The notes under the pieces were generated by a model. That model was not told the DNA's origin. It worked only from the letters and a program-made list of their open reading frames with translations, and made no database searches. 30,077 nt of DNA from Methanobacteriota archaeon. Lineage in GTDB: Archaea; Hydrothermarchaeota; Hydrothermarchaeia; Hydrothermarchaeales; JACQPM01. The DNA is taken from contig JACQPM010000136.1 of the NCBI GenBank assembly GCA_016207475.1, positions 1 through 30,077 on the forward strand, written 5' to 3'. Both the position numbers and the translations under genes were made by a program. The first letter of the stretch is position 1; every line of letters begins with the position of its first letter. Below are positions 14,653-30,077 of the stretch, piece by piece.

Positions 14653-14888
14653 GAGGCCCCTCGCGTCTGCCTATATGGTCAGTAATAGCACTCTCCTACC
14701 TGGCCGTCTCCATCTCCGTGACCCTCCTTTTTTACCTCCTGGCGACGAGGCAGGGGAAGCCCCACACCCCCGCTGAGGTGGCCCTGGGGTCCATCTGGAC
14801 CTTCATCCTCTCCATGATCATCTCTGCCTCCATCCTGCCGCCCATCCTAAAGAAGAGGCTGGGCGTGGGCGATGCAAGGGGGGGCTGA
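14649..14888 (+). CDS. Small membrane protein (two TM helices)
   Basis: ATGA overlap with the copA stop; two hydrophobic helices. Confidence 0.65.
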
Positions 14889-14910
14889 AGAGTTGGATAG
14901 GAGGTAAAAA

Positions 14911-15213
14911 ATGGAAGAAGGAACACCACACTATGCGCATCCAACTGGCATTGCGCTCGGGCTGACAGCCGGCATCGTGTATACGATCTGTGCCCTGTTT
15001 GTGACGGTATGGCCAGCCCAGGCCCTGGGGTTCTTCAAAGATTGGTTCCACGGGATCGACATAGGGCGGATCTTCGCGCCGCCGCAGCTGACCATCTGGG
15101 CCTTCCTCCGGGGCCTCGTGGAGATAGTCCTGGTCTTTTACCTGGTGGGGCTGGTCTACGGGTGGCTCTACAACAAGTGCGTGGCCCACTGCAAGAGGAT
15201 GGGCTGGATCTGA
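14911..15213 (+). CDS. DUF5676 family membrane protein
   Basis: SD GGAGGT; GIALGLT..VYTICAL..WP...WFHGID..GLV..F..G.VYGWLYN pattern. Confidence 0.75.
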   Translation: MEEGTPHYAHPTGIALGLTAGIVYTICALFVTVWPAQALGFFKDWFHGIDIGRIFAPPQLTIWAFLRGLVEIVLVFYLVGLVYGWLYNKCVAHCKRMGWI

Positions 15214-15219
15214 CCGAGG

Positions 15220-15819: not shown

Positions 15820-16020
15820 CCATCCATTTTTAGAAATTCTAGCCATATATAAGTATCTGGAGATGCGTCAGAGTGGCAAAAACCTTCAGTAAAAGTTTCG
15901 ATTTTGATGGTTCTCCTTGGATTACCGCGGCCTAGTGAATAGAATAATGGAATAAAACGGCACTTTTCAATAAAAAAGGTACTTATAGCCATCTATCAGA
16001 ATTTGAACTGGGTGGTAGAG

Positions 16021-16278
16021 ATGCAGGAAAAATTGAGCATGAAGGTCCTGGGCATGTCCCTGGGGGCCCTCTCTTCCATAACGTACGTCCTCTGCGTCCT
16101 TTGGGACATCGCGTTCCCCAGGTACGCGATGAAGGGCGTCTGGTTGAAGCTCCTGCCGGGCTTCACTTGGCTGACCCCGGGGAGCTTCGTCCTCGGGCTG
16201 GTGGAGACCTTCCTTGCAGGGGTCTATGTGGCGGTGGTCTTCGTACCCATATACAACTACCTGCTGGAGAGAGGGTGA
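16021..16278 (+). CDS. DUF5676 family membrane protein (second paralog)
   Basis: LGMSLG..YVLCVLW..FP..W..LLPGFTWLTPGSFVLGLVE..F.P.YN pattern; ATG 16021 after GGTGGT. Confidence 0.75.
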   Translation: MQEKLSMKVLGMSLGALSSITYVLCVLWDIAFPRYAMKGVWLKLLPGFTWLTPGSFVLGLVETFLAGVYVAVVFVPIYNYLLERG

Positions 16279-17501
16279 TGGAAGAATACGATGCAGTGAT
16301 AGTGGGTGGGTCCTTCGCGGGGCTGGCGACCGCTTCCTTCATCCGCTCCGGGAAGGTGCTCCTCCTAGAGAAGAAGAGGGAGATAGGGGCCAGGCAGAGG
16401 TCCACCTGCTGTACCACCGTCGAGGGCATGAAGAGGTTGGGGTGCGAGGGCAGCATCTTGAAGACCTTCGATACCATCACCTTCCACTCCGGCCTGGGAG
16501 CCAGCGCCTCCATTGGGCTGCCCATCCCATTCTGCACCATCGACTACAGGGAGTTCTGCAGGTCCATGGCGGGCAGGCTGGATAGGGCCGAGATAGTGAC
16601 AGACACCACGGTCCTCAGGGTGGAAGGCCCTGGCCTGAAGCTGGTCGTCTGCAAGAATGGTATCTATAGTGGGAAGGTCATAGTAGATTGCAGTGGATGG
16701 AGGGCGGTGACAACGAACCCTCCCGGCAGTCATAAAAAGGTGCAGCTCGCTGGAGCCATAGAGACCGAGACTGAGTACAGCGGTGATACAGATTCCATTC
16801 ACCTCTACTTGGGGAAGAAGTTCGTGGATGGGGGCTATGGCTGGGTCTTCCCCACAGGCGAGGGCAGGGCGCGGATAGGGGTGGGGGGCCTCCACAGATT
16901 CAGCATGCGGAAGACCCTCGATAAGTTCCTCCGTGTCCTGGGCTTGGAGCCCAACGGCTCCAATATCCATTGCGGATACATCCCATGTTTCGGGCTGAGG
17001 GAGCCCGTCGTAGAGGGGATATTCCGTGTTGGAGACGCGGGAGGCCAGGTCCTACCCCTCTCGGCCGAGGGGATAAGGAAGTGCATCCATTATGCCGAAA
17101 TATGCGGTAGCTTGATCACCAACGTCTTGGACGGGGAGATGGACCTACGTACCGCCCAGGAGATATACGAGGTGCAGGTCCATAAGAGCAGAGAGTTCTA
17201 CGAAAATCTCGTCTTCGTCCAGGAGATAGCCTACAGGGCCCCCGACTGGGCGTGGGACTATACAATAAGGGAGCTCTCGGTGGCAGAGGAGAGGGTCCCG
17301 AAGGAGCTCCTGGGCCTCTATTTGGGGGAGGGCCTCACGACCTCCAAGTACGTACTGGCGAAGAAGCTCCTCAGTATTTTGCTCCGCTCCGGCATCAGAA
17401 ATTGGAGACTGGATCTCCCTTCCGGACAGGTTGACCGGTCCCCCTCTAGGGTATGGTCAGAAGATGGTAGATCGAAATGTGGCGTGATCCTGAGAAGATA
17501 A
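16278..17501 (+). CDS. FAD-dependent oxidoreductase, geranylgeranyl reductase family
   Basis: YDAVIVGGSFAG Rossmann start, GGYGWVFP, RVGDAGGQVLPLSAEGI; ATG 16278 overlaps the upstream stop (TGATG), so the track start at 16101 is an over-extension. Confidence 0.85.
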   Translation: MEEYDAVIVGGSFAGLATASFIRSGKVLLLEKKREIGARQRSTCCTTVEGMKRLGCEGSILKTFDTITFHSGLGASASIGLPIPFCTIDYREFCRSMAGRLDRAEIVTDTTVLRVEGPGLKLVVCKNGIYSGKVIVDCSGWRAVTTNPPGSHKKVQLAGAIETETEYSGDTDSIHLYLGKKFVDGGYGWVFPTGEGRARIGVGGLHRFSMRKTLDKFLRVLGLEPNGSNIHCGYIPCFGLREPVVEGIFRVGDAGGQVLPLSAEGIRKCIHYAEICGSLITNVLDGEMDLRTAQEIYEVQVHKSREFYENLVFVQEIAYRAPDWAWDYTIRELSVAEERVPKELLGLYLGEGLTTSKYVLAKKLLSILLRSGIRNWRLDLPSGQVDRSPSRVWSEDGRSKCGVILRR

Positions 17502-17710
17502 GAGGCCTTGTGGAGGAGCTCCTTACAAAAGTCGCAAGAAGGATGGGAGAGGCGCTATCGGTGGCCAATATGGTGCTGGTCATCGATTACAGTTCCAGCT
17601 TTATTGGAGATTCCTTCGCTAAGAGATTGGCTGGCCTGAGGGTAGAAGCCTACTCCATAGACCCTAGGTTCCATCTCTTACCTCTCGTTGCCCCTGGGGA
17701 TATCCTCTGA
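17477..17710 (+). pseudogene. Possible remnant of a uroporphyrinogen decarboxylase/MtaA-family gene
   Basis: MWRDPEKIRGLVEE..ANMVLVIDYSSSFIG resembles an internal segment of that family by eye; short, lower GC, in-frame stop just upstream. Confidence 0.3.
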
Positions 17711-17793
17711 TAGAACCCATCAAGGGCGACCCGACACGGCTGACCCTCGGAAGGGTATCGTTATCCCCCCAGTCATTAGAGAGATAGATGGAA

Positions 17794-17818
17794 GAGGAGG
17801 AGCCTGAAGCTCCTTCTC
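17794..17818 (-). terminator. Stem-loop just after the micro-ORF string
   Basis: GGAGC-CTGAA-GCTCC core extendable to about 10 bp, 11 nt past the SEC-C stop, followed by a pyrimidine-rich run on the minus strand. Confidence 0.3.
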
Positions 17819-17829
17819 CGGTCCCATCA

Positions 17830-17919
17830 TTACATCCCATGCTTCATGCAGCAGTCCTTGTAACTCTTCCCGGAGCCGCATGGGCAGGGGTCATTGGCCC
17901 TTGGCTTGTCTTTTCCCAT
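17830..17919 (-). CDS. Stand-alone SEC-C motif micro-protein, 29 aa: MGKDKPRANDPCPCGSGKSYKDCCMKHGM
   Basis: Textbook SEC-C pattern NDPCPCGSGKxYKxCC; ATG preceded by GAGGGGGG. Confidence 0.75.
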   Translation of the reverse strand: MGKDKPRANDPCPCGSGKSYKDCCMKHGM

Positions 17920-18040
17920 ATCCCCCCCTCATCTCTATGTACCGTTCGTGGAGCGCTGGCACGTACCAGCCCCTCTCCCTCACGAACCTCTCCTTTGACT
18001 CTTCGTAGCTCTCTTCGACCTCAGGTCGGTTTTTGCCCAT
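17891..18040 (-). CDS. 49-aa charged micro-protein MGKNRPEVEESYEESKERFVRERGWY...
   Basis: ATG 18040 after GAGGAGGGGG; overlaps the SEC-C ORF by 29 nt. Confidence 0.45.
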   Translation of the reverse strand: MGKNRPEVEESYEESKERFVRERGWYVPALHERYIEMRGGYGKRQAKGQ

Positions 18041-18054
18041 AGGCCCCCTCCTCT

Positions 18055-18222
18055 TCATAGCCCCGTCTCGTATCTGGGAGAAATCTTCCAATTCCCCGCC
18101 CTCAGCGCCTCTCGGATCTTCTTGAGGGTCTTTCTATCTATCGAACTCTGCTTACCCTTGTTGCCGCCCACGACCGCCATTACGGCGTCGTGGATGTTGA
18201 CCCTCACCTTCCTTCTTTCCAT
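18055..18222 (-). CDS. 55-aa basic micro-protein MERRKVRVNIHDAVMAVVGGNKGKQSSIDRKTLKKIREALRAGNWKISPRYETGL
   Basis: ATG after GAGGGAG; open frame with AGG/AAG/GAG-rich codons like the neighbouring genes. Confidence 0.5.
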   Translation of the reverse strand: MERRKVRVNIHDAVMAVVGGNKGKQSSIDRKTLKKIREALRAGNWKISPRYETGL

Positions 18223-18243
18223 CGATCCGCTCCCTCAATTGAT

Positions 18244-18279
18244 AAAAGAAAAAGCCGGCTGGCAGTGCTGCCAGACGGC
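18244..18279 (-). terminator. GC-rich hairpin followed by a U-tract (intrinsic-terminator-like) within a 17-codon leader ORF (18288-18235)
   Basis: Minus strand GCCG-T-CTGGCA-GCAC-TGCCAG-C-CGGC followed by TTTTTCTTTT. Confidence 0.55.
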
Positions 18280-18523
18280 ATTCTCCATAGGCCTCCTCCC
18301 GCTGTTCAACTTTCGCCCGAGGGAAGTATATACGTTTTTATTTCAAAAGAAGAGCTGGCTATGTTCGAATCTTCCAACATAAACATCCCATGGAGGGCAT
18401 GATTAGAAAATTTAAAAGTTATAGTAGATTTTTTGACAAAGTGAACGCTGAAGCTGTCTCGCCGCTCTCACGATCCCCCGGCTTGCCAAAAAGGATTAAT
18501 ATCTTCACCTCCGATCCTGTAAT

Positions 18524-18817
18524 GTGCTGGGCGAAGGGTCCTGCAAGGTCCCGGGCGGGAAGCTGGTGAGGGTGAGGGTGGAGTACGGCACGACCATCGA
18601 GGGGGTTACCATCACCGGGGACTTCTTCCTCCATCCCGAGGAGGGGATAGGCGCCCTCGAAGAGAGCCTGCAGGGGATGGGGGTTGGGGCAGGCGAAGAG
18701 GCCATGGCCGAGGCCTTGAGGAGGGCCGCCGAAGCCGGGGGCCTGGTGATGGTGGGCATCACCCCCGAGGGGATCGCCAAAGCAGTGAGGGGGGCCCTGC
18801 GGTGCGCTGGCGGGTGA
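18524..18817 (+). CDS. lplB: Lipoate-protein ligase accessory (C-terminal) domain protein, LplB-type
   Basis: KVPGGKLVRV..ITGDFFLHPEE motif; overlaps lplA. Confidence 0.85.
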   Translation: MLGEGSCKVPGGKLVRVRVEYGTTIEGVTITGDFFLHPEEGIGALEESLQGMGVGAGEEAMAEALRRAAEAGGLVMVGITPEGIAKAVRGALRCAGG

Positions 18818-19542
18818 TAGGCCCCGAGACCCGGGACGCCTACTGGAATATGGCGCTCGACGAGGCCGCCTCCGAGGCTCTGGCATCAGGGCTGGTTGGC
18901 CCCACCATCCGCCTCTACCTCTGGCGCCCTGGGGCGGTCTCCATAGGCTACTTCCAGTCCCTGGCCCAGGAGGTGGACAGGGACAGGTGCGGGGCCCTCG
19001 GGATCGACGTGGTGAGGAGGAGGACCGGAGGGGGAGCGGTCTACCACGCCGAGGGGGGCGAAGTGACCTACAGCGTTATCGCCCCCGAAGGGCTCTTCCC
19101 TGGTATAACCGAGTCCTACCGCCTCATCTGCGGCTGGGTCGTGGAGGGGCTGGCCCGCCTGGGGATCAAAGGTGAATTCAGGCCCGTGAACGATATATTG
19201 GTGAGGGGCAGGAAGATCTCCGGAAGCGCCCAGACGAGGCGGGGCGGGATCCTCCACCAGCATGGGACCATCCTCTACAGGTTGGATAAAGGAACTATGT
19301 TCTCCATCCTCAGGGTGGGGAAGGAGAAGCTGGCCGGGAAGGGGATAGAGCGGGCCGAGGCGGGGGTCACATCCGTCTCGGAGCACTCCAAAGCTACCCT
19401 GGAGGAGCTCTGCGCCGCCCTCCAAGCGGGCCTCACGGAGGGGAAGGAGTGGGTCCCCGGTGCCTGGACAGACGGGGAGTTGGAGAGGGCGGAGGAGCTG
19501 GTCCAGAAGTACAGGGATATAGGGTGGAACGGAAGGAGATAG
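18802..19542 (+). CDS. lplA: Lipoate-protein ligase catalytic domain, LplA-type
   Basis: NMALDEA, RRRTGGGAVYH, KISGSAQ, LHQHGTI motifs. Confidence 0.9.
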   Translation: MRWRVIGPETRDAYWNMALDEAASEALASGLVGPTIRLYLWRPGAVSIGYFQSLAQEVDRDRCGALGIDVVRRRTGGGAVYHAEGGEVTYSVIAPEGLFPGITESYRLICGWVVEGLARLGIKGEFRPVNDILVRGRKISGSAQTRRGGILHQHGTILYRLDKGTMFSILRVGKEKLAGKGIERAEAGVTSVSEHSKATLEELCAALQAGLTEGKEWVPGAWTDGELERAEELVQKYRDIGWNGRR

Positions 19543-20769
19543 TTATTTCTCCAGGAAGAGGAGCCCCGGGTTCTCCAGGTGCTCGATGAGCCTGGTGACG
19601 AACCTGGCGGCGTAGGCCCCGTCCGCCACGCGGTGGTCGAAGGATAGGGAGAGGGGTAGGACCTTCCTCACCTCTATCTTCCCGTCCCGGGCCACGGGCC
19701 TCTCGTGGATCTTACCCGTCGCCAGGATGGCGACCTCTGGGTAGTTGACGATGGGGGTGGCGTATGTGCCGCCTATGACCCCGATGTTGGTGATTGTGAA
19801 GGTCCCCCCCTTCAGGTCCGCCAGGTCTATGGTCCTGGCCTGGGCCGCCTTGGCCAGGGCCTCGATCTCCTGGGCGATCTGGAAGATGGACTTCTGGTCC
19901 GCCCCCTTGACGACCGGGACCATGAGCCCCTCGCCCGTGTCCGTGGCGATGCCTATATTATAATATTTCTTCAGGACGATCTCCTCCCCTTCCAGGGTGG
20001 CGTTGAGGTACGGATACTCCTTCAGGGCGGCTATGCAGGCCTTGATTAGGAAGGGGAGGTAGGTCAGCTTGACGCCCTTCCCCTCGGCCTCTTTCTTGGC
20101 CTTCTCCCTGAGCCTGACGAGGGTCGTAACGTCGGCCTCGTCCATGTGGGTCACCCTGGGGACCTTCTCCCAGGACTCGGCCATCCTCCTGGCAGTGGCC
20201 TTCCTTATACCCTTGAGAGGTATCCGCTCGATATAGCCGTACATGTCGTACTTCTTCGTCACCTTGACCGCGGGCTTCTTCTCGGCCGCAGCCCTGACGT
20301 CCCCCTCCGTAACAGCGCCCTCAGGCGCCGTCCCTTGGACCTGCGCCAGGGCTATCCCCAGCTCCGTGGCGAGGCGGCGGGCGGCGGGCGTCGCCTGGAC
20401 GGGACGCTCCTCCGCCTCCTTCTTCTCTACCGCTGCCTTCTCCTCCGGCTTCGCTACCTCTTCCTCCTCGGCCTCCTCCAGGACCCCCACCACGGTGGTG
20501 GAAGGGCGCCGGGCCTCTTCCACCTTGGGCGCCGCGCCCTCCTCCCCCAGGGTCACCAGGACGGAGCCCACCTTGACCGTCTCCCCCTCTCCGTAGTGGA
20601 GCTTGAGGATGGTCCCTGCCTGCGGCACCGGTATCTCCACGATGGCCTTGTCGGTCTCGATCTCCACGAGTGGTTGGTCCTCCTTGACCTTCTCACCTTC
20701 TTTGACCAACCACTTGACTATCTCGCCCTCGGTTATGCCCTCGCCCACGTCAGGGAAGCGGAACTCCAT
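19543..20769 (-). CDS. pdhC: 2-oxoacid dehydrogenase E2 (dihydrolipoamide acyltransferase)
   Basis: Lipoyl domain EIETDKA, E3-binding ATPAARRLA, catalytic FDHRVADG. Confidence 0.95.
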   Translation of the reverse strand: MEFRFPDVGEGITEGEIVKWLVKEGEKVKEDQPLVEIETDKAIVEIPVPQAGTILKLHYGEGETVKVGSVLVTLGEEGAAPKVEEARRPSTTVVGVLEEAEEEEVAKPEEKAAVEKKEAEERPVQATPAARRLATELGIALAQVQGTAPEGAVTEGDVRAAAEKKPAVKVTKKYDMYGYIERIPLKGIRKATARRMAESWEKVPRVTHMDEADVTTLVRLREKAKKEAEGKGVKLTYLPFLIKACIAALKEYPYLNATLEGEEIVLKKYYNIGIATDTGEGLMVPVVKGADQKSIFQIAQEIEALAKAAQARTIDLADLKGGTFTITNIGVIGGTYATPIVNYPEVAILATGKIHERPVARDGKIEVRKVLPLSLSFDHRVADGAYAARFVTRLIEHLENPGLLFLEK

Positions 20770-20778
20770 GGACCCACC

Positions 20779-21756
20779 TCAGTATCGCATCACCCTATCC
20801 ACGGCCCTCATCACCCGGGCCGCGTCCGGTAGATAATACTTCTCCAGCCTGTAGAGTGGGAAGGGGGTGTCGAAACCCGCCACCCGTTCTATGGGCGCCT
20901 TCAGGTAGAGGAGGCTCTTCTCGCCGATGAGGGCGGCCACTTCGGCCCCCAGGCCGCAGGACCGGGGGGCCTCCTGGACTATGACGGCGCGCCCGGTCTT
21001 CTCCACGGAAGCCTTTATGGATTTCGTGTCCAGAGGGGATAAAGTTCGGAGGTCTATGACCTCCGCATCTATCCCCTTGCCCTTCGCCTCCTCTGCCACG
21101 GTTTTGCATAGGGGGACCATGGCACCCCAGGTTATGATGGAGAGGGCGGAGCCCTCTCTCACGACCTTCGCCTCCCCGAGGGGTATCGTATAGTCCCCTT
21201 CGGGGACCTCCTCCTTGAAGGCCCTGTAGATCTTCTTGGGCTCCAGGAAGATCACGGGGTCCGGGTCCCGAATGGCCGCTGCCAGGAGCCCTTTGGTATC
21301 GTAGGGGGTGGAGGGCATCACCACCTTGACCCCCGGGGTGTGTGCGAAGTAGGCCTCGGGTGACTCGGAGTGGTGCTCGGGGGCGTGGATCCCGCCGGAG
21401 CAAGGGGCGCGGACGACCAGCGGGACGCGATAGCGTCCCCTGGAGCGGGTCCTTATCCGCCCGGCGTGGGAGATAATCTGGTCCAGGGCAGGGTAGAGGA
21501 AGCCGTCGAACTGTATTTCGGCAACGGGCCTCATCCCGCAGACCGCCATCCCTATGGAGATGCCCACGATCCCGGACTCGGCCAGGGGGGTGTCTATGAC
21601 CCTCTCCTCCCCGAACTCCTGGAGGAGGCCCTCCGTAGCCCTGAAGACCCCCCCGTTCCTCCCCACGTCCTCCCCCAGGACGACCACCGATTTATCCCTG
21701 GCCATCTCCTCCCGCAGGGCCATGTTCACGGCCTGGACGATGTTTATCTTGGTCAC
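20779..21756 (-). CDS. pdhB: 2-oxoacid dehydrogenase E1 beta subunit
   Basis: GEDVGRNGGVFRAT, DTPLAESG, EIQF, HHSESPE, VIDLRTL. Confidence 0.95.
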   Translation of the reverse strand: MTKINIVQAVNMALREEMARDKSVVVLGEDVGRNGGVFRATEGLLQEFGEERVIDTPLAESGIVGISIGMAVCGMRPVAEIQFDGFLYPALDQIISHAGRIRTRSRGRYRVPLVVRAPCSGGIHAPEHHSESPEAYFAHTPGVKVVMPSTPYDTKGLLAAAIRDPDPVIFLEPKKIYRAFKEEVPEGDYTIPLGEAKVVREGSALSIITWGAMVPLCKTVAEEAKGKGIDAEVIDLRTLSPLDTKSIKASVEKTGRAVIVQEAPRSCGLGAEVAALIGEKSLLYLKAPIERVAGFDTPFPLYRLEKYYLPDAARVMRAVDRVMRY

Positions 21757-22835
21757 TTCCGCCCCTCCGTGAGGGCCTCCCGCAGTTCCTGGAGCTCCTC
21801 CTCCAGATTCTGCGGCATCTCCTCGAAGGTGTACCTGAAGATGTCCTCCACCTCGGGCTCCGGGGTGGCCTCCATCTCCTCCACGGCCTTCCTCACCCTC
21901 TCTTCGGCCTCCTCCTGGACCTTCGCACCGTAATCCTTCGACCAGAGCCCCTTCCCCTCCATGTACTTCCTCAGCCGCTCTATCGGATCTTTCACCCGCC
22001 AGGCCTCCACCTCCTCTTGGCTCCGATACCGAGAGGCGTCGTCGGCGGTGGTGTGGTCCCCCATCCTATAGGTGAGGCACTCGATGAAGGTGGGGCCACC
22101 GCCAGCGCGGGCCTTCTCCAAGGCGTCCAGCGTGGACTTATAGACGGCAAAGACGTCGTTACCGTCCACGCGGACGCCTTCGAAGCCGTAGGCTATCGCC
22201 TTCTGGGCCAGGGTCTCCGCCGCCGTCTGCCTCGTTATGGGGACGCTTATGGCCCACTGGTTGTTCTGGCAGAGGAAGACCACCGGTATTTGAAAAACAC
22301 CGGCGAAGTTCATCCCCTCATGGAAGTCCCCCTTGGAGGTGGCACCGTCACCGAAGTAGACCATGGCCACCCTCTTCTCCTTCCGCATCTTGAAGGCCCA
22401 GGCGGCGCCCACGGCGTGGAGGACCTGGGTCCCTACGGGGATGGCGACGGTGAAGTTGTTCATCCCCTCGGGCATCTGGCACCCCCTCTCGTCCCCTGCC
22501 CAGTACCTGAGGACCATGGCCATGGGGACGCCCCGGACTATGTAGGAGCCGTTCTCCCGGTAGGAGGGGAACATCCAGTCCTCGTCCTCCATGGCGTAGG
22601 CCGAGCCTATCTGGGAGGCCTCCTGCCCCAGGACCGGGGCGTAGGTCCCTATCCTCCCCATCCTCTGGAGCTTGACCGCCTTCTCGTCGAAGGTCCTCAC
22701 CAGGACCATGAACTCGTAGAGCTCCTTTATCTCCTCCCCGGTGAGGTCAGGCATCAGTCCCTCGTCGCACCGCCCCTCCTCGTCCAGGACCTGGAGGTAG
22801 GGGACCTCGAATTTCCTGATTATCTCCTTAGGCAT
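21753..22835 (-). CDS. pdhA: 2-oxoacid dehydrogenase E1 alpha subunit (pyruvate or branched-chain specificity unresolved)
   Basis: TPP motif GDGATSKGDFHEGMNF..QNN, YRMGDHTTADD, DPI. Confidence 0.93.
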   Translation of the reverse strand: MPKEIIRKFEVPYLQVLDEEGRCDEGLMPDLTGEEIKELYEFMVLVRTFDEKAVKLQRMGRIGTYAPVLGQEASQIGSAYAMEDEDWMFPSYRENGSYIVRGVPMAMVLRYWAGDERGCQMPEGMNNFTVAIPVGTQVLHAVGAAWAFKMRKEKRVAMVYFGDGATSKGDFHEGMNFAGVFQIPVVFLCQNNQWAISVPITRQTAAETLAQKAIAYGFEGVRVDGNDVFAVYKSTLDALEKARAGGGPTFIECLTYRMGDHTTADDASRYRSQEEVEAWRVKDPIERLRKYMEGKGLWSKDYGAKVQEEAEERVRKAVEEMEATPEPEVEDIFRYTFEEMPQNLEEELQELREALTEGRK

Positions 22836-23685
22836 CCTGACCCTCCAGGAGGAGCGCAGCCTTGTAGGAGGACCTTACGAGAGGGCCCGCGGATATCCTC
22901 AGGCCCATCCTCCGCCCTTCCTTCCCCAGCTCCTGGAACTCCTCCGGCGACCAGTATCGCACGACCTCCCTCTGCCAAGGGCCGGGGCGGAGGTACTGCC
23001 CCAGGGTGACTATGTAGACCCCAGCCGCCCTCATGTCGGCCATGGCCTGGATGATCTCTTCTCTGGCTTCCCCCAGGCCGAGCATCAGGGAGGATTTTGT
23101 GTATATCCCTGGGTCGAGGGCCTGGGCGTCCCTGAGGACCTGGAGGGAGCGCCTGTAGCCGGCCCTCCGATCCCTCACTTCCTCCTGCAGCCTCTCCACC
23201 ACCTCTATGTTGTGGGCCAGGACCTTCGGTCCCGCTTCTACGACCTTCCGCAGGGCCTGCCTCTCCCCCTGGAAGTCAGGGACGAGGGCCTCCACCTCTG
23301 CACCGATGGCTTTCACCGCCCTCACGCACTCTGCGATATGCCCGGCCCCGCCGTCGGGGAGGTCGTCCCTGGTGACGGAGGTTATTACCACGTAGCGGAG
23401 GGCTAGGGCCTCAACGCACCTAGCAAGCCTCTCTGGCTCCGTCGGATCGGGCGCCTCCGGCGCTCCCTTCTCCACGGCACAGAACCGGCAGCCCCTGGTG
23501 CATACGCGCCCCAGTACCATGAAGGTGGCCTCCCCGGCCCCCCAGCACTCCCCCGCGTTGGGGCACCGGGCCGAGGCGCAGACCGTCTCCAGGTTATGGG
23601 CCCGCAGCATCTCCCGGGTCCTGTGATACTCCACCGGCGGGGGCCTGATCCTGAGCCAGGTTGGCTTCCGCAAAGTCCCCTCCAT
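22828..23685 (-). CDS. lipA: Lipoyl synthase (radical SAM)
   Basis: CX4CX5C (CASARCPNAGEC), CX3CX2C (CTRGCRFC) and C-terminal RSSY; the start at 23685 avoids overlap with the dehydrogenase gene upstream. Confidence 0.93.
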   Translation of the reverse strand: MEGTLRKPTWLRIRPPPVEYHRTREMLRAHNLETVCASARCPNAGECWGAGEATFMVLGRVCTRGCRFCAVEKGAPEAPDPTEPERLARCVEALALRYVVITSVTRDDLPDGGAGHIAECVRAVKAIGAEVEALVPDFQGERQALRKVVEAGPKVLAHNIEVVERLQEEVRDRRAGYRRSLQVLRDAQALDPGIYTKSSLMLGLGEAREEIIQAMADMRAAGVYIVTLGQYLRPGPWQREVVRYWSPEEFQELGKEGRRMGLRISAGPLVRSSYKAALLLEGQDA

Positions 23686-23720
23686 AGCAGGTAATTGGCG
23701 ATAAGGGATAAAAAAGTTTC

Positions 23721-24890
23721 CTACTTCCGCACCCTCTTCAGCGCGAACTTGGCTATGAGTCTGCGCATTATTTCGGAGGTGCCCTCGCCGATGGTCATGA
23801 GCTTGGCGTCCCTCCAGTGGCGATGGACATCCCACTGGTCCGCGTAGCCCCGGGCCCCGTGAATCTGGATCGCCTCGTCGCAGACGTAGAGGGCCGCCTC
23901 GGAGGCCAGGAGCTTGGCCTGGGAGGCCTCGGGCGCAAAGAACTCGCCGCGGTCCTTGAGGTTTGCGGCGTGGTAGGCCATGAGACGGGAAGCTGTTATG
24001 CGGGTCTGCATATCCGCAAGCTTCCCCTGTATGAGCTGGAACTCCGCTATGGGCCTCTTGAACTGGACCCGCTCCGCGGCGAACCGGAGGCTCTTCTCGT
24101 AGGCCGCCGAGGCTATCCCCACGGCCATGGCCGCTATGGTGATCCGCCCGCTGTTGAGCATCAGCTTGGCGTAGGTGAAGCCCTTCCCCTCCCCCCCCAC
24201 CAGGTTCTCCCTGGGGACCCGGCAGTCCTTGAAGACTATCCCGCCCAGCTCCGAGCCCCGGAAGCCCAGCTTCTCGAAGGGCTTGACGTGGCTCATGCCG
24301 GTGGCCCCCTTCTCCACCAAGAAGGCGGAGTGCTTTTTGCCGGTCCTGGCGAAGACGAAGGCCACGTCCGCCTTGGAGGCGTTGGTGATGAAGAGCTTGG
24401 AGCCGTTCAGGACGTACTCGTCTCCCTCCAGGACGGCCTCGGTCCGCATGGCCCCCGCATCGGAGCCGGAGCCGCTCTCCGTTAAGGCGAAGCAGCCGAG
24501 CCTCTCACCCTTCACCAAGGATGGGAGGAAGCGCTCCTTGAGATCGGTGCTCCCGAAGGTGTGGATCCCGTTGCAGACGGTGTTGTGTATCGCAATGGAG
24601 ACGGAGGTGGAGGCGCAGGCCTTGGAGACCAGCTCCACGGCGGCGGTGTAGACCAAGAAGGGGAGCTCCTCCCCCCCGTACTCCTTGGGGAAGGAGAGGC
24701 CGATCACCCCTTCTCTTGCCAGGAGGGCTATGGCCTCTCGGGGGAAGATGGCCCCCTGGTCCACTTCCTTTGCCTTGGGGGCCACCTCTCGTTCCAGGAG
24801 CGCGCCTATCTCCTCCAGCCTGGCGTTGTACCTATCGCCCACGAAGGCCTCCAAGGCCCTCCTCTGGTCGGTGCTGTAGAAAGGCATCAC
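23721..24890 (-). CDS. Acyl-CoA dehydrogenase (short/branched-chain type)
   Basis: FALTESGSGSDA, NGSKLFITN, IQIHGARGY, and IGEGTSEI carrying the catalytic Glu. Confidence 0.93.
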   Translation of the reverse strand: MMPFYSTDQRRALEAFVGDRYNARLEEIGALLEREVAPKAKEVDQGAIFPREAIALLAREGVIGLSFPKEYGGEELPFLVYTAAVELVSKACASTSVSIAIHNTVCNGIHTFGSTDLKERFLPSLVKGERLGCFALTESGSGSDAGAMRTEAVLEGDEYVLNGSKLFITNASKADVAFVFARTGKKHSAFLVEKGATGMSHVKPFEKLGFRGSELGGIVFKDCRVPRENLVGGEGKGFTYAKLMLNSGRITIAAMAVGIASAAYEKSLRFAAERVQFKRPIAEFQLIQGKLADMQTRITASRLMAYHAANLKDRGEFFAPEASQAKLLASEAALYVCDEAIQIHGARGYADQWDVHRHWRDAKLMTIGEGTSEIMRRLIAKFALKRVRK

Positions 24891-25321
24891 CCCTCCGGCA
24901 CGAAGTAGACGTCCGTGGCCCTGAACTTGGGTTTCTTCAGGAACTGGGCTCTGACCCGCATCCCGACCTTGACCTCCCCCTCACCGGCACCCACGAGCCT
25001 GGAGAGGAAGAGGGTGTCGACTCCCCTGAACTCCACCAGGACGAGGTGGAACGGCTCCTCCAGGTAGCAGGTGGTCCAGGTATGGACCCTCCCCGCCAGC
25101 GGGAGGTCGAACCAGGCCGTCTCCTTGCCGCACTCCATGCAGTGCCGCCTGGGCGTTGCATACCTTATCCCACACCCCTTGCACTCGGTCCCCAGGAGCC
25201 TCCCCTGGGAGAGGCCCGCGAAGAAGGGCGAGTCCTGGGCGTAGCTGTGGAGGTAGTCGATCTCGTGATGATCTTTTATGATGATGGGGTCGATGCCGGA
25301 GGGAGGCTGCGCCTTCTTCAT
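24887..25321 (-). CDS. DUF35 (Zn-ribbon + OB-fold) thiolase partner protein
   Basis: CKGC..PRRHCMEC zinc ribbon, then GRVHTWT..VKVGMRV OB fold; ATG overlaps the thiolase-like stop. Confidence 0.88.
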   Translation of the reverse strand: MKKAQPPSGIDPIIIKDHHEIDYLHSYAQDSPFFAGLSQGRLLGTECKGCGIRYATPRRHCMECGKETAWFDLPLAGRVHTWTTCYLEEPFHLVLVEFRGVDTLFLSRLVGAGEGEVKVGMRVRAQFLKKPKFRATDVYFVPEG

Positions 25322-26571
25322 CCCGCCCTCTCCAGTACCGTCACGGTGGAGTAGGTGCCGGTGCCCCCGTGGCTGTGGACCAGCCCCCGCCTTGCTCCCC
25401 TCACCTGGAGCCTCCGGGAGCCGAGGTGCTCCTTCATCTTCCCCTGGAGCTGCCATAATGCGAATACGGCCTGCATGAGCCCGGTGGCGCCTATGGGGTG
25501 GCCGCACCCCAGGAGCCCCCCCGAAGGGTTGACGGGGAGATCGCCTCCCAGGGCAGAGCGGCCCTCCTCCACGAAGGACCCGCCCTCGCCGTACCGGCAG
25601 AGCCCCAGGTCCTCGTAGGCCTGGATCTCCGCTGAGGTGTAGGCGTCGTAGAGCTCCGCGAAGTCCAGCTCCTCCCGCGGGTCCCTTATCCCGGCCTGGG
25701 CGTAGGCGGCCTTGGCAGCCATCCGATCCGCCCGGCAGGAGTGGACCCCAGGGTACCGGAGCCCTCGATAATCCCCAGCCCTCTCGTGGGGGAGGGGGAT
25801 CACCCGGCCGCGGGGCCGGTCCGCCATCCGCATGGTGTCGGTGCCGGCGCCCACGCCCTTGACCAGGACCGGATGGTCGGTTATCGAGAAGGTGGTCTCC
25901 CTGTCGCAGAGGATAGCCACCGCAGCGCCGTCGGACATGAGGGAGCAGTCGAGCCTCGTCAGGGGCCATGCGATAAGGCCCGAGGCGCGTACGTCCTCGA
26001 CGGTGAGCCTGGCCGGGGCCTGGGCGAATGGATTATGAACGGCGTTCCCGTGGTTCTTGACCGAGACCAGGGCCATCTGGTCCGCCGTCGTCCCGAACTC
26101 GTGCATGCGGCGGACTGCCATCATGGCGTAGTAGGCGGTGTAGAAGCCGCCGAGGGGGTAGTCGAAGTTCGTGTCGGAGGCGAGGGCTATGATCTCGTTC
26201 CCCTTCCGGGTGCTGACCCTGGACATCGTCTCGAAGCCGCAGGCCAGGCAGACGTCGGCACGCCCCGAGGCCACGGCCTCGTAGGCCGAGTGGATGGCCA
26301 GCCCCCCCGTGGCCCCGCCACCCTCGACCCTCCGGCTCGGCTTCGGGCAGAGGCCGAGGTAGTCCTGGACCATCGCCCCGGCCATGAGCTGCCTGGTGAA
26401 GTGGTCCGAGAAGTAGGAGCAGACCGTCATGCCGATGTCCTTGGGCTTTAGCTCCGGTACGTCGCCCATGGCCAGGTCGTAGGCCTCCTTTACCATCGTC
26501 CTGAAGTCCATCCTGGGCTGGGCCCTGGCGAAACGTGTCACCCCGCCGGCCACGAGATATACGTCCCTCAT
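25318..26571 (-). CDS. Thiolase-like (SCP-x type) protein lacking the N-terminal catalytic Cys
   Basis: Thiolase-fold motifs DCSLMSDGAA, NPSGGLLGCGHPIGATG, HSHGG; RVEGGGATGG in place of ExxCASG, and ELYDAY in place of ELHDAF. Confidence 0.85.
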   Translation of the reverse strand: MRDVYLVAGGVTRFARAQPRMDFRTMVKEAYDLAMGDVPELKPKDIGMTVCSYFSDHFTRQLMAGAMVQDYLGLCPKPSRRVEGGGATGGLAIHSAYEAVASGRADVCLACGFETMSRVSTRKGNEIIALASDTNFDYPLGGFYTAYYAMMAVRRMHEFGTTADQMALVSVKNHGNAVHNPFAQAPARLTVEDVRASGLIAWPLTRLDCSLMSDGAAVAILCDRETTFSITDHPVLVKGVGAGTDTMRMADRPRGRVIPLPHERAGDYRGLRYPGVHSCRADRMAAKAAYAQAGIRDPREELDFAELYDAYTSAEIQAYEDLGLCRYGEGGSFVEEGRSALGGDLPVNPSGGLLGCGHPIGATGLMQAVFALWQLQGKMKEHLGSRRLQVRGARRGLVHSHGGTGTYSTVTVLERAG

Positions 26572-27074
26572 CCCCTGTACTCCCGCACCAGCCGGACGTA
26601 CTCCTCCCAGTTATAGGCGATCTGCTTTATGTTATCCTCATCGGCCCCCTTCACCACCCGCCCCGGGACCCCCGCCACCACGGACCTGGGCGGTATCTTG
26701 GTGCCTATGGTCAGGACCGTCCCAGCGGCCACGATGGACCACTCCCCCACCTCCACCCTGTCCATGAGGATGGCCCCCATCCCTACGATGCAGTTCTCCC
26801 CCACCGTGCAGCCGTGGAGGATGGCGTTGTGCCCCACCGAGACCCTCCTCCCCAGGACGGTCTCCGATACCCCCCTGGTGGTGTGCACTATGCACCCGTC
26901 CTGGATGTTGCTCTCCTCCCCCACCCTTATGGGCCCCATGTCCCCCCTCAGGACGGCGTTGAACCAGACGCTGGACCTCTCCCCCAGGACCACGTCCCCT
27001 ATCACCCTGGCGCTCTCCTCCACGAAGGCCGTGGGGTGGACCTCAGGGGTCTTCCCTCGATAGGGGAGTATCAT
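26568..27074 (-). CDS. Gamma-class carbonic anhydrase family (CaiE/PaaY/YrdA-like)
   Basis: VWFNAVLRGD, NIQDGCIVH, VGHNAILHGC hexapeptide repeats with three His. Confidence 0.9.
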   Translation of the reverse strand: MILPYRGKTPEVHPTAFVEESARVIGDVVLGERSSVWFNAVLRGDMGPIRVGEESNIQDGCIVHTTRGVSETVLGRRVSVGHNAILHGCTVGENCIVGMGAILMDRVEVGEWSIVAAGTVLTIGTKIPPRSVVAGVPGRVVKGADEDNIKQIAYNWEEYVRLVREYRG

Positions 27075-28237
27075 AGCATCCTGACCGCCATGGAGACGGA
27101 GCCCCCGCCTCCCAGGCAGAGGCTGGCGAGGCCCAGCTCCTTCCTCCGGTCCTTGAGCGCGTGGAGGAGCGTAACGAGGATTCGCGCGCCGCTGGCCCCT
27201 ATGGGGTGCCCCAGCGCTATCGCCCCTCCGTGGACGTTCACCCTCTCAGGATCCATCCCCAGGTCCCTCATCACGGCTATGGCCTGGGATGCAAAGGCTT
27301 CGTTCTCCTCGATGAGGTCGAAATCCTCGATCCGGAGGCCCGTCTTGGCCAATAGCGCTCTCACAGAGACCGTGGGGGCGATGGGGAACCACTCCGGGGC
27401 CACATGCCCCGATGCATATCCCTCGATCCTGGCCATGGGCCTGAGCCCCAGCTCCTCGGCCCTGGACCTGGAGGCCACCAGGAGGGCTGCTGCGGCGTCG
27501 TTCAGCCCAGGCGCATTACCTGCGGTTATCGTCCCGTCGGGCTTGAAGGCCGGCTTGAGCCTGGCGAGCTTCTCCATGCTGGTGTCCCTCCTGGGCGGCT
27601 CGTCGGTATCGACCAGCCCGGTCTTCACCTTGACAGGGACTATCTCCTCCCGGAACTTCCCGGCATCCATGGCCGCCACGGCCCTCTGGTGGGACCTCAG
27701 GGCGAAGGCGTCCTGCTCCTCCCTCGGTATCTTGTAGCGCTCGGCCGTCAGCTCGCAGAGGGCCCCCATGGTGGCCCCCTTGTAGCAGTCCCAGAGGCCG
27801 TCGTGGATCATGGAGTCGACGAGGATGGCGTCGCCGTGCCTCTTCCCGAAGCGGAGGTCCGGGGACAGGTAGGGAGCCCTGGACATGGACTCCAGCCCCC
27901 CCGCCACTATGAGGTGGGCGTCCCCCGCCTTTATGGCCTGGGCAGCCAGCGCCACTGCCTTCAAGGCAGAGGCACAGACCTTGTTCACCGTGAGGGCCGC
28001 CACGCTGCTGGAGATCCCTGCATAGATGGCCGCCTGCCTGGCCGGGTTCTGGCCGAGGCCCGCCGGGAGGCAGTTCCCCATGATCACCTCGTCCAGGTCC
28101 CTGGGCTCGACGCCCGCCCTCTCCACGGCCGCCCTCACCGCCACGGCTCCCAGCTCCGTGGCTGGGACGGCGGAGAGGGCCCCCATGAGCTTCCCCACAG
28201 GGGTCCTGGCCGCCGATACGATGACCACTTCCTCCAT
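27071..28237 (-). CDS. Acetyl-CoA C-acyltransferase (canonical thiolase)
   Basis: All catalytic motifs are intact: NKVCAS, EENEAF, GHPIGASG, CLGGG. Confidence 0.95.
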   Translation of the reverse strand: MEEVVIVSAARTPVGKLMGALSAVPATELGAVAVRAAVERAGVEPRDLDEVIMGNCLPAGLGQNPARQAAIYAGISSSVAALTVNKVCASALKAVALAAQAIKAGDAHLIVAGGLESMSRAPYLSPDLRFGKRHGDAILVDSMIHDGLWDCYKGATMGALCELTAERYKIPREEQDAFALRSHQRAVAAMDAGKFREEIVPVKVKTGLVDTDEPPRRDTSMEKLARLKPAFKPDGTITAGNAPGLNDAAAALLVASRSRAEELGLRPMARIEGYASGHVAPEWFPIAPTVSVRALLAKTGLRIEDFDLIEENEAFASQAIAVMRDLGMDPERVNVHGGAIALGHPIGASGARILVTLLHALKDRRKELGLASLCLGGGGSVSMAVRML

Positions 28238-28241
28238 CCCG

Positions 28242-28970
28242 TCACCTCTCCAAGAATCGCTTCATCAGGGCCCTCTGCTCCTCGGTCCCGAAGAGCCTTG
28301 AGAAGGACTCCGCCTCCTTCCGATAGGAGCCCGAGTCTATGAGGGCCTTTGCTGCCTTGAGAGCCTTAGGAGGGTTGGAGGCCAGGGTCTTTGCCAGGGC
28401 CATTGCTTCTTCCATGAGCCGCTCTCTGGGGACCACCCTGTTGACCAGCCCCATGGAGAGGGCCTCGGCGGCCGTTATCTTCCTGCCTGTGAGGATCAGC
28501 TCTTTCGCCCTGAGCCTTCCCACGCGCTGGGGGAGCCTCTGGGTGCCGCCGGCCCCTGGGACGATCCCCAGGAGGACCTCCGGCTGGCCGAAGACCGCAT
28601 CCTCGGAGGCGATGGCCAGGTCGCAGGCCAGGACCAGCTCGCACCCCCCGCCCAGGGCATGGCCGTTCACCGCCGCCGCCACAGGTTTTGGCAGTCCCTC
28701 CAGGCCTGCCAAAACCTTCTGGAAGAGGAGGGAGAACCTCTTGGCCTCCCTCGTGGTGAAGTCTGCCATCTCCTTTATATCGGCCCCGGCAACGAAGGTC
28801 TTTCCCTCCCCGGTGATGAGGAGCACCCGGGAGTCGTCCCTGGCCAGGCCACGAAGGGCCTTCGAGAGGTCCCTCAGCACTGGGGTGGAGAAGAGGTTGA
28901 CCTTCGGCTGGTTGAAGGTCAGGAGGGCGATGGTACCCTTCCTCTCCAGACGGAAGCCCGTGTATTCTAT
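28242..28970 (-). CDS. Enoyl-CoA hydratase (crotonase family), apparently with a non-canonical ATA start
   Basis: FVAGADIKE, GGGCELVLACD and FGQPE (both catalytic Glu). Family N-terminus (IALLTFNQPKVN) lies upstream of the track GTG at 28880; GGAGG sits 7 nt before ATA 28970. Confidence 0.88.
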   Translation of the reverse strand: MEYTGFRLERKGTIALLTFNQPKVNLFSTPVLRDLSKALRGLARDDSRVLLITGEGKTFVAGADIKEMADFTTREAKRFSLLFQKVLAGLEGLPKPVAAAVNGHALGGGCELVLACDLAIASEDAVFGQPEVLLGIVPGAGGTQRLPQRVGRLRAKELILTGRKITAAEALSMGLVNRVVPRERLMEEAMALAKTLASNPPKALKAAKALIDSGSYRKEAESFSRLFGTEEQRALMKRFLER

Positions 28971-28987
28971 GGCGATGCCTCCCTACC

Positions 28988-29257
28988 TCACTTACCCTGG
29001 GCCCACCGCCGCAAGGTCTCGTAATCGACGGACCCGCAGAGCCACTTCCCGGTCCTCTTGTTGTAGAAGAAAGGGACCCCGCCGCAGTAACCCTTGTCCA
29101 GCTGGCGCATGAGGGCTGCGTTCTTCTCGTTGTGCCAGACCTCCAGCCTCTGTATCTCTATCCGCTCCTCTGCCCTGAGCCTCTCTATGAGGGGCTCCAC
29201 GGCCTTGCAGTGGACGCACTCGGTACCGTAGAACTCCAGGAGATCCTCCTCCGGCAT
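28988..29257 (-). CDS. Thioredoxin-fold protein
   Basis: ECVHC CxxC and GGVPFF cis-Pro motif. Confidence 0.8.
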   Translation of the reverse strand: MPEEDLLEFYGTECVHCKAVEPLIERLRAEERIEIQRLEVWHNEKNAALMRQLDKGYCGGVPFFYNKRTGKWLCGSVDYETLRRWAQGK

Positions 29258-29366: not shown

Positions 29367-30077
29367 ATGTCCGAGGCCTCCAAGGTCATCGAGAGGGACA
29401 GGAAGGTGATCCCAAACCTCACCAGGGCCCCCTATCCGCTGGTGGTGGAGAGGGCCGAGGGTTCCTACATCTGGGACAGGGACGGCAAGAAGTACCTGGA
29501 TTTTGCCTCGGGGATAGCGGTGGCTGCTGTTGGGCACAGCCACCCCCGGGTGAAGGAAGCCGTGAAAAGCCAGCTGGAGAAGGCCTCCCACGCGGCCTTC
29601 GCCGATTTTTATGCCGAGGTCCCGGTGGCACTGGCGGAGAGGCTCTGCCACATCACCGGCTACGGGAAGGTCTTCTTCTCCAACTCCGGGACCGAGGCCG
29701 TGGAGGCTGCCATCAAGCTGGCCCGGTTCCGCACCAAGAGGGGGAAGCTGGTGGCCTTCTACGGCGCCTTCCACGGACGGACCTACGGCTCCCTCTCCCT
29801 GACATCCTCCAAGCTCATCCACAAGACCCATCTGGGCCCCTTCCTCCCTGAGGTATACCATACGCCCTACGCCGACTGCTACCGCTGCCCCTTCGGGCGG
29901 GAGGAGCCCTGCGATACGGAGTGCGTAGCCTTTATGGAGGAGGTCCTCTTCAGGAGGGAGTGCAACCCCGAGGAGGTGGCCGCGGTGGTTACGGAGCCCA
30001 TCCAGGGAGAAGGCGGGATTATCGTTCCACCTCCTGAGTTCCATAAGAAGGTGAAGAGGCTCTGCAAGGTCCACGGG
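29367..30077 (+). CDS. Class III PLP-dependent aminotransferase (ornithine/GABA type), truncated by the window end
   Basis: Translated by hand from ATG 29367: YLDFASGIAV..VGHSHP, FFSNSGTEAVEAAIK, AFHGRT, EPIQGEGG; no stop in the window, so absent from the ORF track. Confidence 0.92.
   Translation, partial: MSEASKVIERDRKVIPNLTRAPYPLVVERAEGSYIWDRDGKKYLDFASGIAVAAVGHSHPRVKEAVKSQLEKASHAAFADFYAEVPVALAERLCHITGYGKVFFSNSGTEAVEAAIKLARFRTKRGKLVAFYGAFHGRTYGSLSLTSSKLIHKTHLGPFLPEVYHTPYADCYRCPFGREEPCDTECVAFMEEVLFRRECNPEEVAAVVTEPIQGEGGIIVPPPEFHKKVKRLCKVHG

Follow-up and report, generated by a model that had tools for sequence, protein, structure and literature searches.

A cysteine-less thiolase-like protein and its DUF35 partner in a short-chain acyl-CoA gene cluster of a Hydrothermarchaeales archaeon

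The pairing of a thiolase-fold protein with the product of an adjacent DUF35 gene is a textbook arrangement, and the pair described here shares it with the benzoylsuccinyl-coenzyme A (CoA) thiolase BbsAB and the acyltransferase PhlABC, in which a thiolase-fold subunit works with a DUF35 subunit on aromatic substrates, in BbsB with a catalytic cysteine. The Friedel-Crafts acylase PhlC likewise uses a catalytic cysteine (PMC6392133). In two further systems, Ltp2 (motif YDHF plus Tyr344) and Sal (motif YDCY, with an essential cysteine), glycine occupies the nucleophile position and the partner is again a DUF35 protein (PMC12329534). Here we analyze a 30,077-nucleotide (nt) stretch of contig JACQPM010000136.1 (hereafter the window), from the metagenome-assembled genome (MAG) of a Hydrothermarchaeales archaeon (1.04 Mb, 58% complete), in which eleven minus-strand genes at positions 19543–29257 include such a pair. 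With genes called by Pfam and NCBIfam, this cluster is best read as a predicted 2-oxoacid-to-acyl-CoA and short- or branched-chain acyl-CoA catabolic set that carries a conserved, uncharacterized pair. As the most likely function of the pair we tentatively favor an enolate-based, non-covalent C–C lyase, that is, a retro-aldolase, with its complex formation with the DUF35 protein, its aldol chemistry and its substrate each predicted from sequence and gene context. The interest of the locus lies in the PRK06365-type family to which the thiolase-like protein belongs and not in the window cluster itself, the rest of which is ordinary except for a missing E3 component.

A thiolase-fold family with glycine at the nucleophile position

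The pair is encoded by two genes of the cluster, the start of the second overlapping the stop of the first as ATGA:

25318–26571, minus strand: thiolase-fold protein without catalytic cysteines, PRK06365-type, 417 residues (NF004982, 680 bits; Thiolase_N and Thiolase_C_1)
24887–25321, minus strand: DUF35 zinc-ribbon/OB-fold partner, 144 residues (OB_ChsH2_C, 36.8 bits; zf-ChsH2, 28.5 bits)

When the thiolase-like protein is aligned with the acetoacetyl-CoA thiolase of M. thermolithotrophicus (6ESQ), the segment RVEAACASGS, which holds the nucleophile, corresponds to RVEGGGATGG, so that the nucleophilic cysteine is replaced by Gly86. The HDCF motif has become YDAY, with Ala310 in place of the acid/base cysteine, whereas the histidine of the GHP motif is kept (GHPIGATG). 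The first-pass annotation, made from the sequence alone, had called the protein cysteine-less, and the alignment agrees: both catalytic cysteines are absent, so that no acyl-enzyme would form and the protein could not act as a covalent thiolase. The same pattern runs through 121 aligned family members, where E-G-G-G-A-T-G-G is essentially invariant, its glycine at the nucleophile position fully so, and GHPxGATG is kept; the second motif is HDAY in 118 members and YDAY in three, and alanine replaces the acid/base cysteine in all 121. The DUF35 protein has the expected zinc-ribbon cysteines (CKGC...CMEC, a CxxC...CxxC arrangement).

The family, NCBIfam NF004982 (PRK06365), is present in at least 502 species genomes of bacteria and archaea, with an above-cut-off match in none of 14 model organisms. 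Its members are 65–72% identical across Bacillota, Chloroflexota, Nitrospirota, Nitrospinota, Brocadiales, Tectomicrobia, Geobacteraceae, Thermoplasmata and Undinarchaeales, which argues for an enzyme. The window protein matches NF004982 over its full length at 680.2–680.7 bits, 15 bits short of the cut-off of 695, and shares every hallmark motif of the family together with its conserved insert. A dN/dS ratio (nonsynonymous to synonymous substitution rates) of 0.26 against a 97% identical contig (record Hain_PNK108_H32...) indicates that the thiolase-like gene is still constrained. A search for longer proteins returned only two, of 750 residues and 41–42% identity, and thus no domain fusion pointing to a function. 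We found no published work on the PRK06365-type family in the literature searched.

The closest solved relatives of the window protein are archaeal thiolases with the same DUF35 partnership, the M. thermolithotrophicus enzyme (6ESQ/6ET9) and P. furiosus 7YVY (182 and 174 bits, about 30% identity). Thiolases are also the top Foldseek matches of an AlphaFold model of the protein, which was built from a 15-sequence alignment, has a mean confidence (pLDDT) of 67 with the active-site loops below 50, and serves for coarse ranking only. These enzymes differ from the window protein in retaining the nucleophilic cysteine (and HDCF in 6ESQ), where the window protein has glycine, YDAY and the conserved insert of about 25 residues, located at residues 252–283. 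ST0096 of Sulfolobus tokodaii (4YZO, 172 bits) also combines an archaeal thiolase fold with no nucleophilic cysteine in the alignment, but it is a 373-residue protein with an HDMA motif that lies outside the PRK06365-type family; no function for ST0096/4YZO was found in the literature searched.

Given these relatives, the pair might still be a thiolase or Claisen enzyme that works by a non-covalent mechanism or with a relocated cysteine, a reading we consider very unlikely. The family consensus does keep both oxyanion-hole histidines (HDAY, GHP), its closest relatives are true thiolases, and extra cysteines at positions 92, 210 and 356 are conserved in most members; yet the window protein lacks Cys92 and Cys210, Cys356 is serine or alanine in 21 of the 121 members, and the gene for an ordinary thiolase lies two genes from its own. 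Nor do we know of any cysteine-free thiolase mechanism.

Likeness to the steroid aldolases is more distant. With Ltp2–ChsH2 of Thermomonospora curvata (6OK1) the pair shares the thiolase fold, the glycine at the nucleophile position, the DUF35 partner and, in the window protein, the leading tyrosine of the second motif, but the protein falls outside the Ltp2 clade (87 bits, 24% identity, Foldseek rank 46), has YDAY (HDAY in the family) instead of YDHF, and keeps GHP. Its DUF35 protein is free and not fused to a MaoC hydratase, and the context is one of short-chain acyl-CoA and not of steroids. The region that matches Tyr344, the general acid of Ltp2, holds the thiolase-type GHP, a placement made by spacing alone. 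Sal–Shy of Comamonas testosteroni (9MYR; 70 bits, 22% identity) likewise shares the fold, the glycine, a Tyr-Asp-x-Tyr motif and a DUF35 partner, but the essential Cys304 of its YDCY corresponds to the family-invariant alanine (Ala310), and its steroid-shaped binding cleft has no counterpart in the window context. Since the window protein is closer to archaeal thiolases than to the steroid aldolases, any aldolase function would be an independent invention.

The pair among short- and branched-chain acyl-CoA genes

We examined 80 loci carrying the thiolase-like gene. The DUF35 gene lies directly downstream in 69 of them, which together with the ATGA coupling here supports the pairing proposed in the first-pass annotation. 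An acyl-CoA dehydrogenase (ACAD) gene is found within 10 kb in 29 loci, mostly of the IGEGTSE subtype to which the window ACAD also belongs (18 of 27 ACADs in related loci, with three of the IGAGT type). Genes for a split B12-dependent mutase of the isobutyryl-CoA mutase (ICM) type recur as well (large subunit in 14 loci, small subunit in 16), usually directly upstream of the pair. The signature of this mutase, Phe and Gln, is that of ICM; a 2-hydroxyisobutyryl-CoA mutase was considered and rejected because the signature positions hold Phe, Gln and Ala, not Ile and Asp. No B12 mutase was found in the genome of the window. Crotonase genes occur in eight loci, thiolase genes in 12, metallo-beta-lactamase (MBL)-fold genes in 10, 4HBT thioesterase genes in five and aldehyde dehydrogenase genes in three; PrpD-family proteins and electron-transfer flavoprotein (ETF) also recur, as do divergent ACS-like short-chain ligases beside the pair. 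By NCBIfam, both the aldehyde dehydrogenases close to the pair and the only one in the genome of the window are of generic type and do not point to any substrate. E1/E2 genes lie near the pair in four to five loci, and such sets stand beside it in several phyla, also without an adjacent E3; a Geobacter contig likewise has an E1–E2–LplA arrangement adjoining the pair. The pair is a regular extra member of short- and branched-chain acyl-CoA clusters.

A 3-hydroxyacyl-CoA dehydrogenase gene is part of the pair's operon in at least seven loci, and in four of these (L011, L013, L016, L083) crotonase and thiolase are present too. Examples are the order crotonase–thiolase–IcmA–IcmB–pair–dehydrogenase of anammox bacteria and the order thiolase–dehydrogenase–ACAD–pair of Geobacteraceae. 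In the MAG of the window, contig C30 (L108) carries a BktB-like thiolase gene followed by a gene for a 280-residue 3-hydroxyacyl-CoA dehydrogenase. The first-pass annotation had proposed that the pathway ends in retro-aldol cleavage instead of beta-oxidation, a claim that these dehydrogenases, on C30 and in at least seven other genomes, do not bear out; since pair and dehydrogenase share one operon, the pair would be an addition to beta-oxidation and not a replacement for the dehydrogenase. A mevalonate-pathway role was rejected: contig C105 (L107) of the same MAG encodes a canonical archaeal trio of 3-hydroxy-3-methylglutaryl-CoA (HMG-CoA) synthase, cysteine-bearing thiolase and DUF35 protein, and the window pair is therefore not the mevalonate-pathway pair.

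Some arrangements recur in detail. The pair directly follows the split mutase in Brocadiales, Nitrospirota, Aminicenantes and Chloroflexota (L011, L013, L016, L022, L067, L070, L072, L083 and others), and in several of the mutase loci an MBL-fold hydrolase gene adjoins the mutase genes or the pair. In L067 and L072 (about positions 6300–18500) an ACAD–IcmA–IcmB–thiolase-like–DUF35 block lies directly upstream of yceD-plsX-fabH-fabD-fabG-fabF, so that in those bacteria it may be linked to the supply of branched-chain primers for making fatty acids.

In the window, the pair stands in the middle of the cluster, whose remaining genes and immediate neighbors are the following:

28988–29257, minus strand: thioredoxin-fold protein, 89 residues, first gene of the cluster (Pfam Thioredoxin, 22.9 bits, under the cut-off of 23.5; CVHC, a CxxC motif, at residue 14)
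28242–28970, minus strand: crotonase, a short-chain enoyl-CoA hydratase, 242 residues if started at ATA 28970 (ECH_1, 188 bits; NF004475, 233 bits)
27071–28237, minus strand: bacterial-type thiolase II of the acetoacetyl-CoA thiolase type, 388 residues (TIGR01930, 460 bits, above cut-off)
26568–27074, minus strand: left-handed beta-helix protein of the gamma-carbonic anhydrase/PaaY/CaiE type, 168 residues (NF050158 166, PaaY 140 and CaiE 124 bits, each below cut-off)
23721–24890, minus strand: ACAD of the IGEGTSE subtype, 389 residues (four ACAD Pfam domains)
23686–23720, minus strand: ACAD–lipA spacer, 35 nt, with a T-run/TATA-like stretch (sequence reading)
22828–23685, minus strand: lipoyl synthase LipA (TIGR00510, 341 bits, above cut-off; both Fe-S cysteine motifs)
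21753–22835, minus strand: 2-oxoacid dehydrogenase E1 alpha (TIGR03181, pyruvate dehydrogenase E1 alpha, 511 bits, cut-off 411)
20779–21756, minus strand: 2-oxoacid dehydrogenase E1 beta (NF006667, 320.9 bits, cut-off 321)
19543–20769, minus strand: E2 acyltransferase with lipoyl, E3-binding and catalytic domains (2-oxoacid_dh 303, Biotin_lipoyl 86, E3_binding 48 bits)
18802–19542, plus strand: LplA-like lipoate-protein ligase, convergent with E2 (LplA-B_cat, 160 bits)
29367–30077, plus strand: class-III aminotransferase, divergent from the cluster and truncated by the window end (Aminotran_3, 221 bits; PRK05769-type, 318 bits)

From the thioredoxin-fold gene to E2, all eleven genes have the order and identities given in the first-pass annotation, and their junctions (17, 4, −4, −4, −4, −4, 35, −8, −4 and 9 nt) keep to the gaps or overlaps of 35 nt or less that it had reported, the 17-nt crotonase gap requiring the ATA start. 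Its statement that the window lacks a 3-hydroxyacyl-CoA dehydrogenase also held in a scan of the window. Apart from the thiolase-like protein, all catalytic motifs checked across the cluster are intact, including both catalytic glutamates of the crotonase (GGGCE, GQPE), the VCAS, NEAF, GHP and CLGGG motifs of thiolase II, and the TDKA lipoyl-lysine and DHRVADG motifs of E2. No equivalent of the gamma-carbonic anhydrase/PaaY-like gene was found beside the pair in the 80 other loci.

Two of these enzymes were compared with solved relatives of differing substrate. Among solved relatives, the ACAD is closest to C. difficile butyryl-CoA dehydrogenase (323 bits) and short-chain acyl-CoA dehydrogenase (SCAD, 291 bits), with isovaleryl-CoA dehydrogenases at 235–262 bits, and its catalytic glutamate is at the position used by SCAD and medium-chain acyl-CoA dehydrogenase (MCAD) (IGEGTSEI), not at the Glu254 position of isovaleryl-CoA dehydrogenases, which goes with G-A/G-G-T; we predict an ACAD of the SCAD/butyryl-CoA type and not of the isovaleryl-CoA type. 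The best solved relative of E1 alpha is the pyruvate dehydrogenase (PDH) E1 alpha of G. stearothermophilus (336 bits, versus 252–261 bits for branched-chain E1 alpha proteins), and its profile match places it in the curated PDH clade, a placement that does not itself set pyruvate specificity. Against a Thermoplasma sp. operon the proteins are 42/58/39% identical (E1 alpha 42%), a comparison from which specificity is not readable. The set otherwise has the E1 alpha, E1 beta and E2 (lipoyl, E3-binding and catalytic domains) of heterotetrameric-E1 complexes such as the G. stearothermophilus PDH and the Thermoplasma branched-chain enzyme, but differs in that no E3 was detected in the window cluster or the genus.

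If the pair is a retro-aldolase, as we tentatively favor, it would act beside two modules. The lipA–E1 alpha–E1 beta–E2 genes, with lplA nearby, would provide a lipoate-dependent 2-oxoacid dehydrogenase making a short acyl-CoA, and ACAD, crotonase and thiolase II would oxidize a C4–C5 acyl-CoA, the dehydrogenase and BktB-like thiolase of C30 completing an ordinary turn of beta-oxidation. The pair keeps what could stabilize an acyl-CoA enolate, namely the GHP histidine, the His or Tyr of H/Y-D-A-Y and the glycine at the old nucleophile position, and might therefore make or break a C–C bond without a covalent intermediate. Its substrate would be a short 3-hydroxyacyl-CoA, probably a branched one, that lies beyond the dehydrogenase/thiolase route and that the pair would cleave by a retro-aldol reaction.

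Several observations weigh against a retro-aldolase. Activity data on any family member were not found in the literature searched. The window protein scores far higher with archaeal true thiolases (182 bits) than with Ltp2 (87) or Sal (70), and the Foldseek ranking agrees. At the base position the family has histidine, not the tyrosine of the aldolases, and the third residue of the motif is alanine where Ltp2 has histidine and Sal its essential cysteine. The window protein is moreover an outlier, deviating at 21 of the 196 sites where conservation among the other members reaches at least 95% (median member 2, maximum 9), with changes that include Q94H, C210S, F279C, H308Y, S314A and A355G; H308Y is the change that makes its motif aldolase-like, and this protein may have a function other than the family's, or one that is decaying. 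Finally, E3 (PF02852) was not found in the cluster, in the MAG (58%) or in a same-genus genome, G001 (96% complete), with the control positive in all 14 model genomes, and ETF was not found in the MAG at its 58% completeness. In this connection, the gene that heads a cluster with E1, E2, LipA and LplA but no E3 encodes a CxxC thioredoxin-fold protein.

A second reading, which we hold to be unlikely but still worth weighing, has the cluster convert butyryl- or 2-methylbutyryl-CoA to acetyl-CoA by ordinary short-chain beta-oxidation, drawing on a dehydrogenase in trans, the pair being a non-catalytic scaffold or catalyzing other enolate chemistry such as alkylmalonyl-CoA decarboxylation, double-bond or stereo-isomerization, or thioester hydrolysis. 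With the C30 genes included the enzyme set is complete, the ACAD resembles butyryl-CoA dehydrogenase, the close association with an ICM-type mutase suggests a flow of C4 acyl-CoA, and hydrolase-type neighbors recur (the MBL-fold and 4HBT genes of other loci, the PaaY-like gene here). The thiolase-like protein TbSLP slowly decarboxylates malonyl-CoA (PMC12329534), and DUF35 proteins scaffold archaeal multi-enzyme complexes (bioRxiv 10.1101/2024.07.05.601840). However, the high identity and invariant active-site loops across domains would be unexpected for a pure scaffold, and no carboxylase to make alkylmalonyl-CoA was found in the genus. For the isomerase and hydrolase options we know of no thiolase-fold precedent.

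The opposite, biosynthetic direction, in which PDH would feed acetyl-CoA to reverse beta-oxidation or to archaeal fatty-acid or primer synthesis on a DUF35-organized complex, is one to which we give hardly any credence. It can draw on the PDH-like E1, on the abutment of the ACAD–mutase–pair block on plsX-fabHDG-fabF in two bacterial loci, and on the DUF35-mediated fatty-acid synthase complex known in Sulfolobus (bioRxiv 10.1101/2024.07.05.601840), but the condensing cysteine is missing, the cluster has no ketoacyl reductase, MaoC dehydratase or enoyl reductase, and its ACAD points to oxidation.

Leucine as a candidate source of the substrate

The first-pass annotation had named a specific route, in which a branched-chain 2-oxoacid would be converted to isovaleryl-CoA, 3-methylcrotonyl-CoA and 3-hydroxyisovaleryl-CoA, the last then being split by the pair to acetone and acetyl-CoA, bypassing methylcrotonyl-CoA carboxylase. 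In its favor, a crotonase hydrates 3-methylcrotonyl-CoA to the tertiary 3-hydroxyisovaleryl-CoA in leucine breakdown, and a 3-hydroxyacyl-CoA dehydrogenase cannot oxidize a tertiary alcohol. We nevertheless consider the route improbable.

The carboxylase part of the proposal is supported. Carboxyltransferase (PF01039), and with it any methylcrotonyl- or propionyl-CoA carboxylase, was not found in the MAG or G001, in another four high-quality genomes of the order, or in 11 pair-bearing Thermoplasmata, all of which have E1 and three to eight ACAD matches each. This favors the route, as does the division of labor in related clusters, where valine has the ICM route and isoleucine ordinary beta-oxidation, which leaves leucine without an enzyme. 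So does one Thermoplasmata locus (L053), in which the pair is directly followed by an ACAD of the isovaleryl-CoA dehydrogenase type and an ACS-like ligase.

A physiological precedent also speaks for the route. The formation of acetone from leucine in Vibrio has been reported (Nemecek-Marshall 1999, cited in PMC13677872), and its overall chemistry is that of the proposed route, leucine carbon leaving as acetone without a carboxylase step. Functional data on 3-hydroxyisovaleryl-CoA/acetone chemistry were not found in the literature searched. The Vibrio pathway is said to run via 3-hydroxyisovaleryl-CoA, and reportedly no gene was assigned to the activity.

The cluster's own enzymes fit less well. 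The window ACAD and most of the ACADs linked to the pair are IGEGTSE proteins with the glutamate at the SCAD/MCAD position and resemble butyryl-CoA more than isovaleryl-CoA dehydrogenases, E1 alpha is placed in the curated PDH clade, and the acid residue of the aldolases is missing. The genome encodes a 3-hydroxyacyl-CoA dehydrogenase outside the cluster, and other organisms have one in the pair's own operon; no acetone-handling gene is linked; and the absence of the carboxylase rests partly on an incomplete MAG. A pyruvate-specific E1, and an ACAD preferring straight chains together with a dehydrogenase encoded elsewhere, had been named beforehand as outcomes that would count against the route. 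A dehydrogenase does lie on C30, and by homology alone the E1 and ACAD lean that way; the proposal is weakened to that extent. It is similarly doubtful that PRK06365-type pairs as a whole are short-chain 3-hydroxyacyl-CoA retro-aldolases that provide a carboxylase-independent exit for leucine or isovalerate carbon.

Whatever the reaction, the presence of the family in short- and branched-chain acyl-CoA operons means that a step of that metabolism is to be assigned in anammox bacteria, Nitrospira/Nitrospina and Thermoplasmata. An aldolase role for the pair would carry thiolase-fold retro-aldol chemistry beyond steroid side chains into the central metabolism of short chains and could explain the disposal of leucine carbon in organisms without biotin carboxylases. 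Were the leucine route true, the pair would supply the missing enzyme of acetone-from-leucine chemistry and a widespread branched-chain step in anammox bacteria, nitrite oxidizers, Geobacteraceae, Firmicutes and Thermoplasmata.

Host genome, origin of the cluster and minor features

The window is archaeal, as its genes for DUF63, a TRASH-domain regulator and a geranylgeranyl-reductase-like protein show; among named relatives of this last protein, the best come from Hydrothermarchaeales and Pyrohabitans at 46–49% identity. The cluster has a G+C content of 65.0%, compared with 61.5% for the genome and above all 44 other 10-kb segments, and a search of 30 relatives within the order did not find the thiolase-like gene. 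Apart from the one 97% identical metagenome contig, the nearest relatives of the thiolase-like protein are 70–72% identical and have bacterial-looking neighborhoods. The cluster was possibly acquired horizontally.

A chimeric contig was ruled out, as G001 matches both flanks of the window at 91–92%, thiolase–crotonase–thioredoxin included. Two G001 contigs, C195 and C164, end at positions matching window 15851 and 26910, so that the intervening 11 kb, with the geranylgeranyl-reductase-like gene, lplA, E2, E1, lipA, ACAD, DUF35 and the thiolase-like gene, is either unassembled or absent there; E1 was not found in G001 at its 96% completeness.

Two starts and one spacer bear on how the genes are expressed. 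No ATG, GTG or TTG gives the crotonase its full N-terminus; an in-frame ATA at 28970 sits 7 nt past a GGAGG, whereas the first canonical start, GTG 28880, would open a 107-nt gap and lose about 30 residues. The ATA may be an uncommon start codon, or the assembly may have a base error here. LipA most likely starts at ATG 23685 rather than at the upstream GTG 23835. The T-tract/TATA-like stretch that the first-pass annotation had placed ahead of lipA is present in the spacer (GAAACTTTTTTATCCC, about 27 nt 5′ of the lipA ATG and after the ACAD stop), and a separate, possibly leaderless, lipA–E1–E2 transcript is plausible. A sigma-70 and terminator scan of the spacer was uninformative, the host being an archaeon.

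Two further gene groups lie outside the cluster. At window positions 532–2190 an HGD-D family 2-hydroxyacyl-CoA-dehydratase-like protein (314 residues) is followed by an activator ATPase of the BcrAD/BadFG type (237 residues), and an activase-type gene set is also found 5–7 kb from the pair in a metagenome contig (L102). At 11995–15846 a copper-type P1B ATPase of 885 residues with two HMA domains adjoins an Lrp/AsnC regulator with an archaeal TRASH domain, which looks like a metal-resistance unit unrelated to the acyl-CoA cluster.

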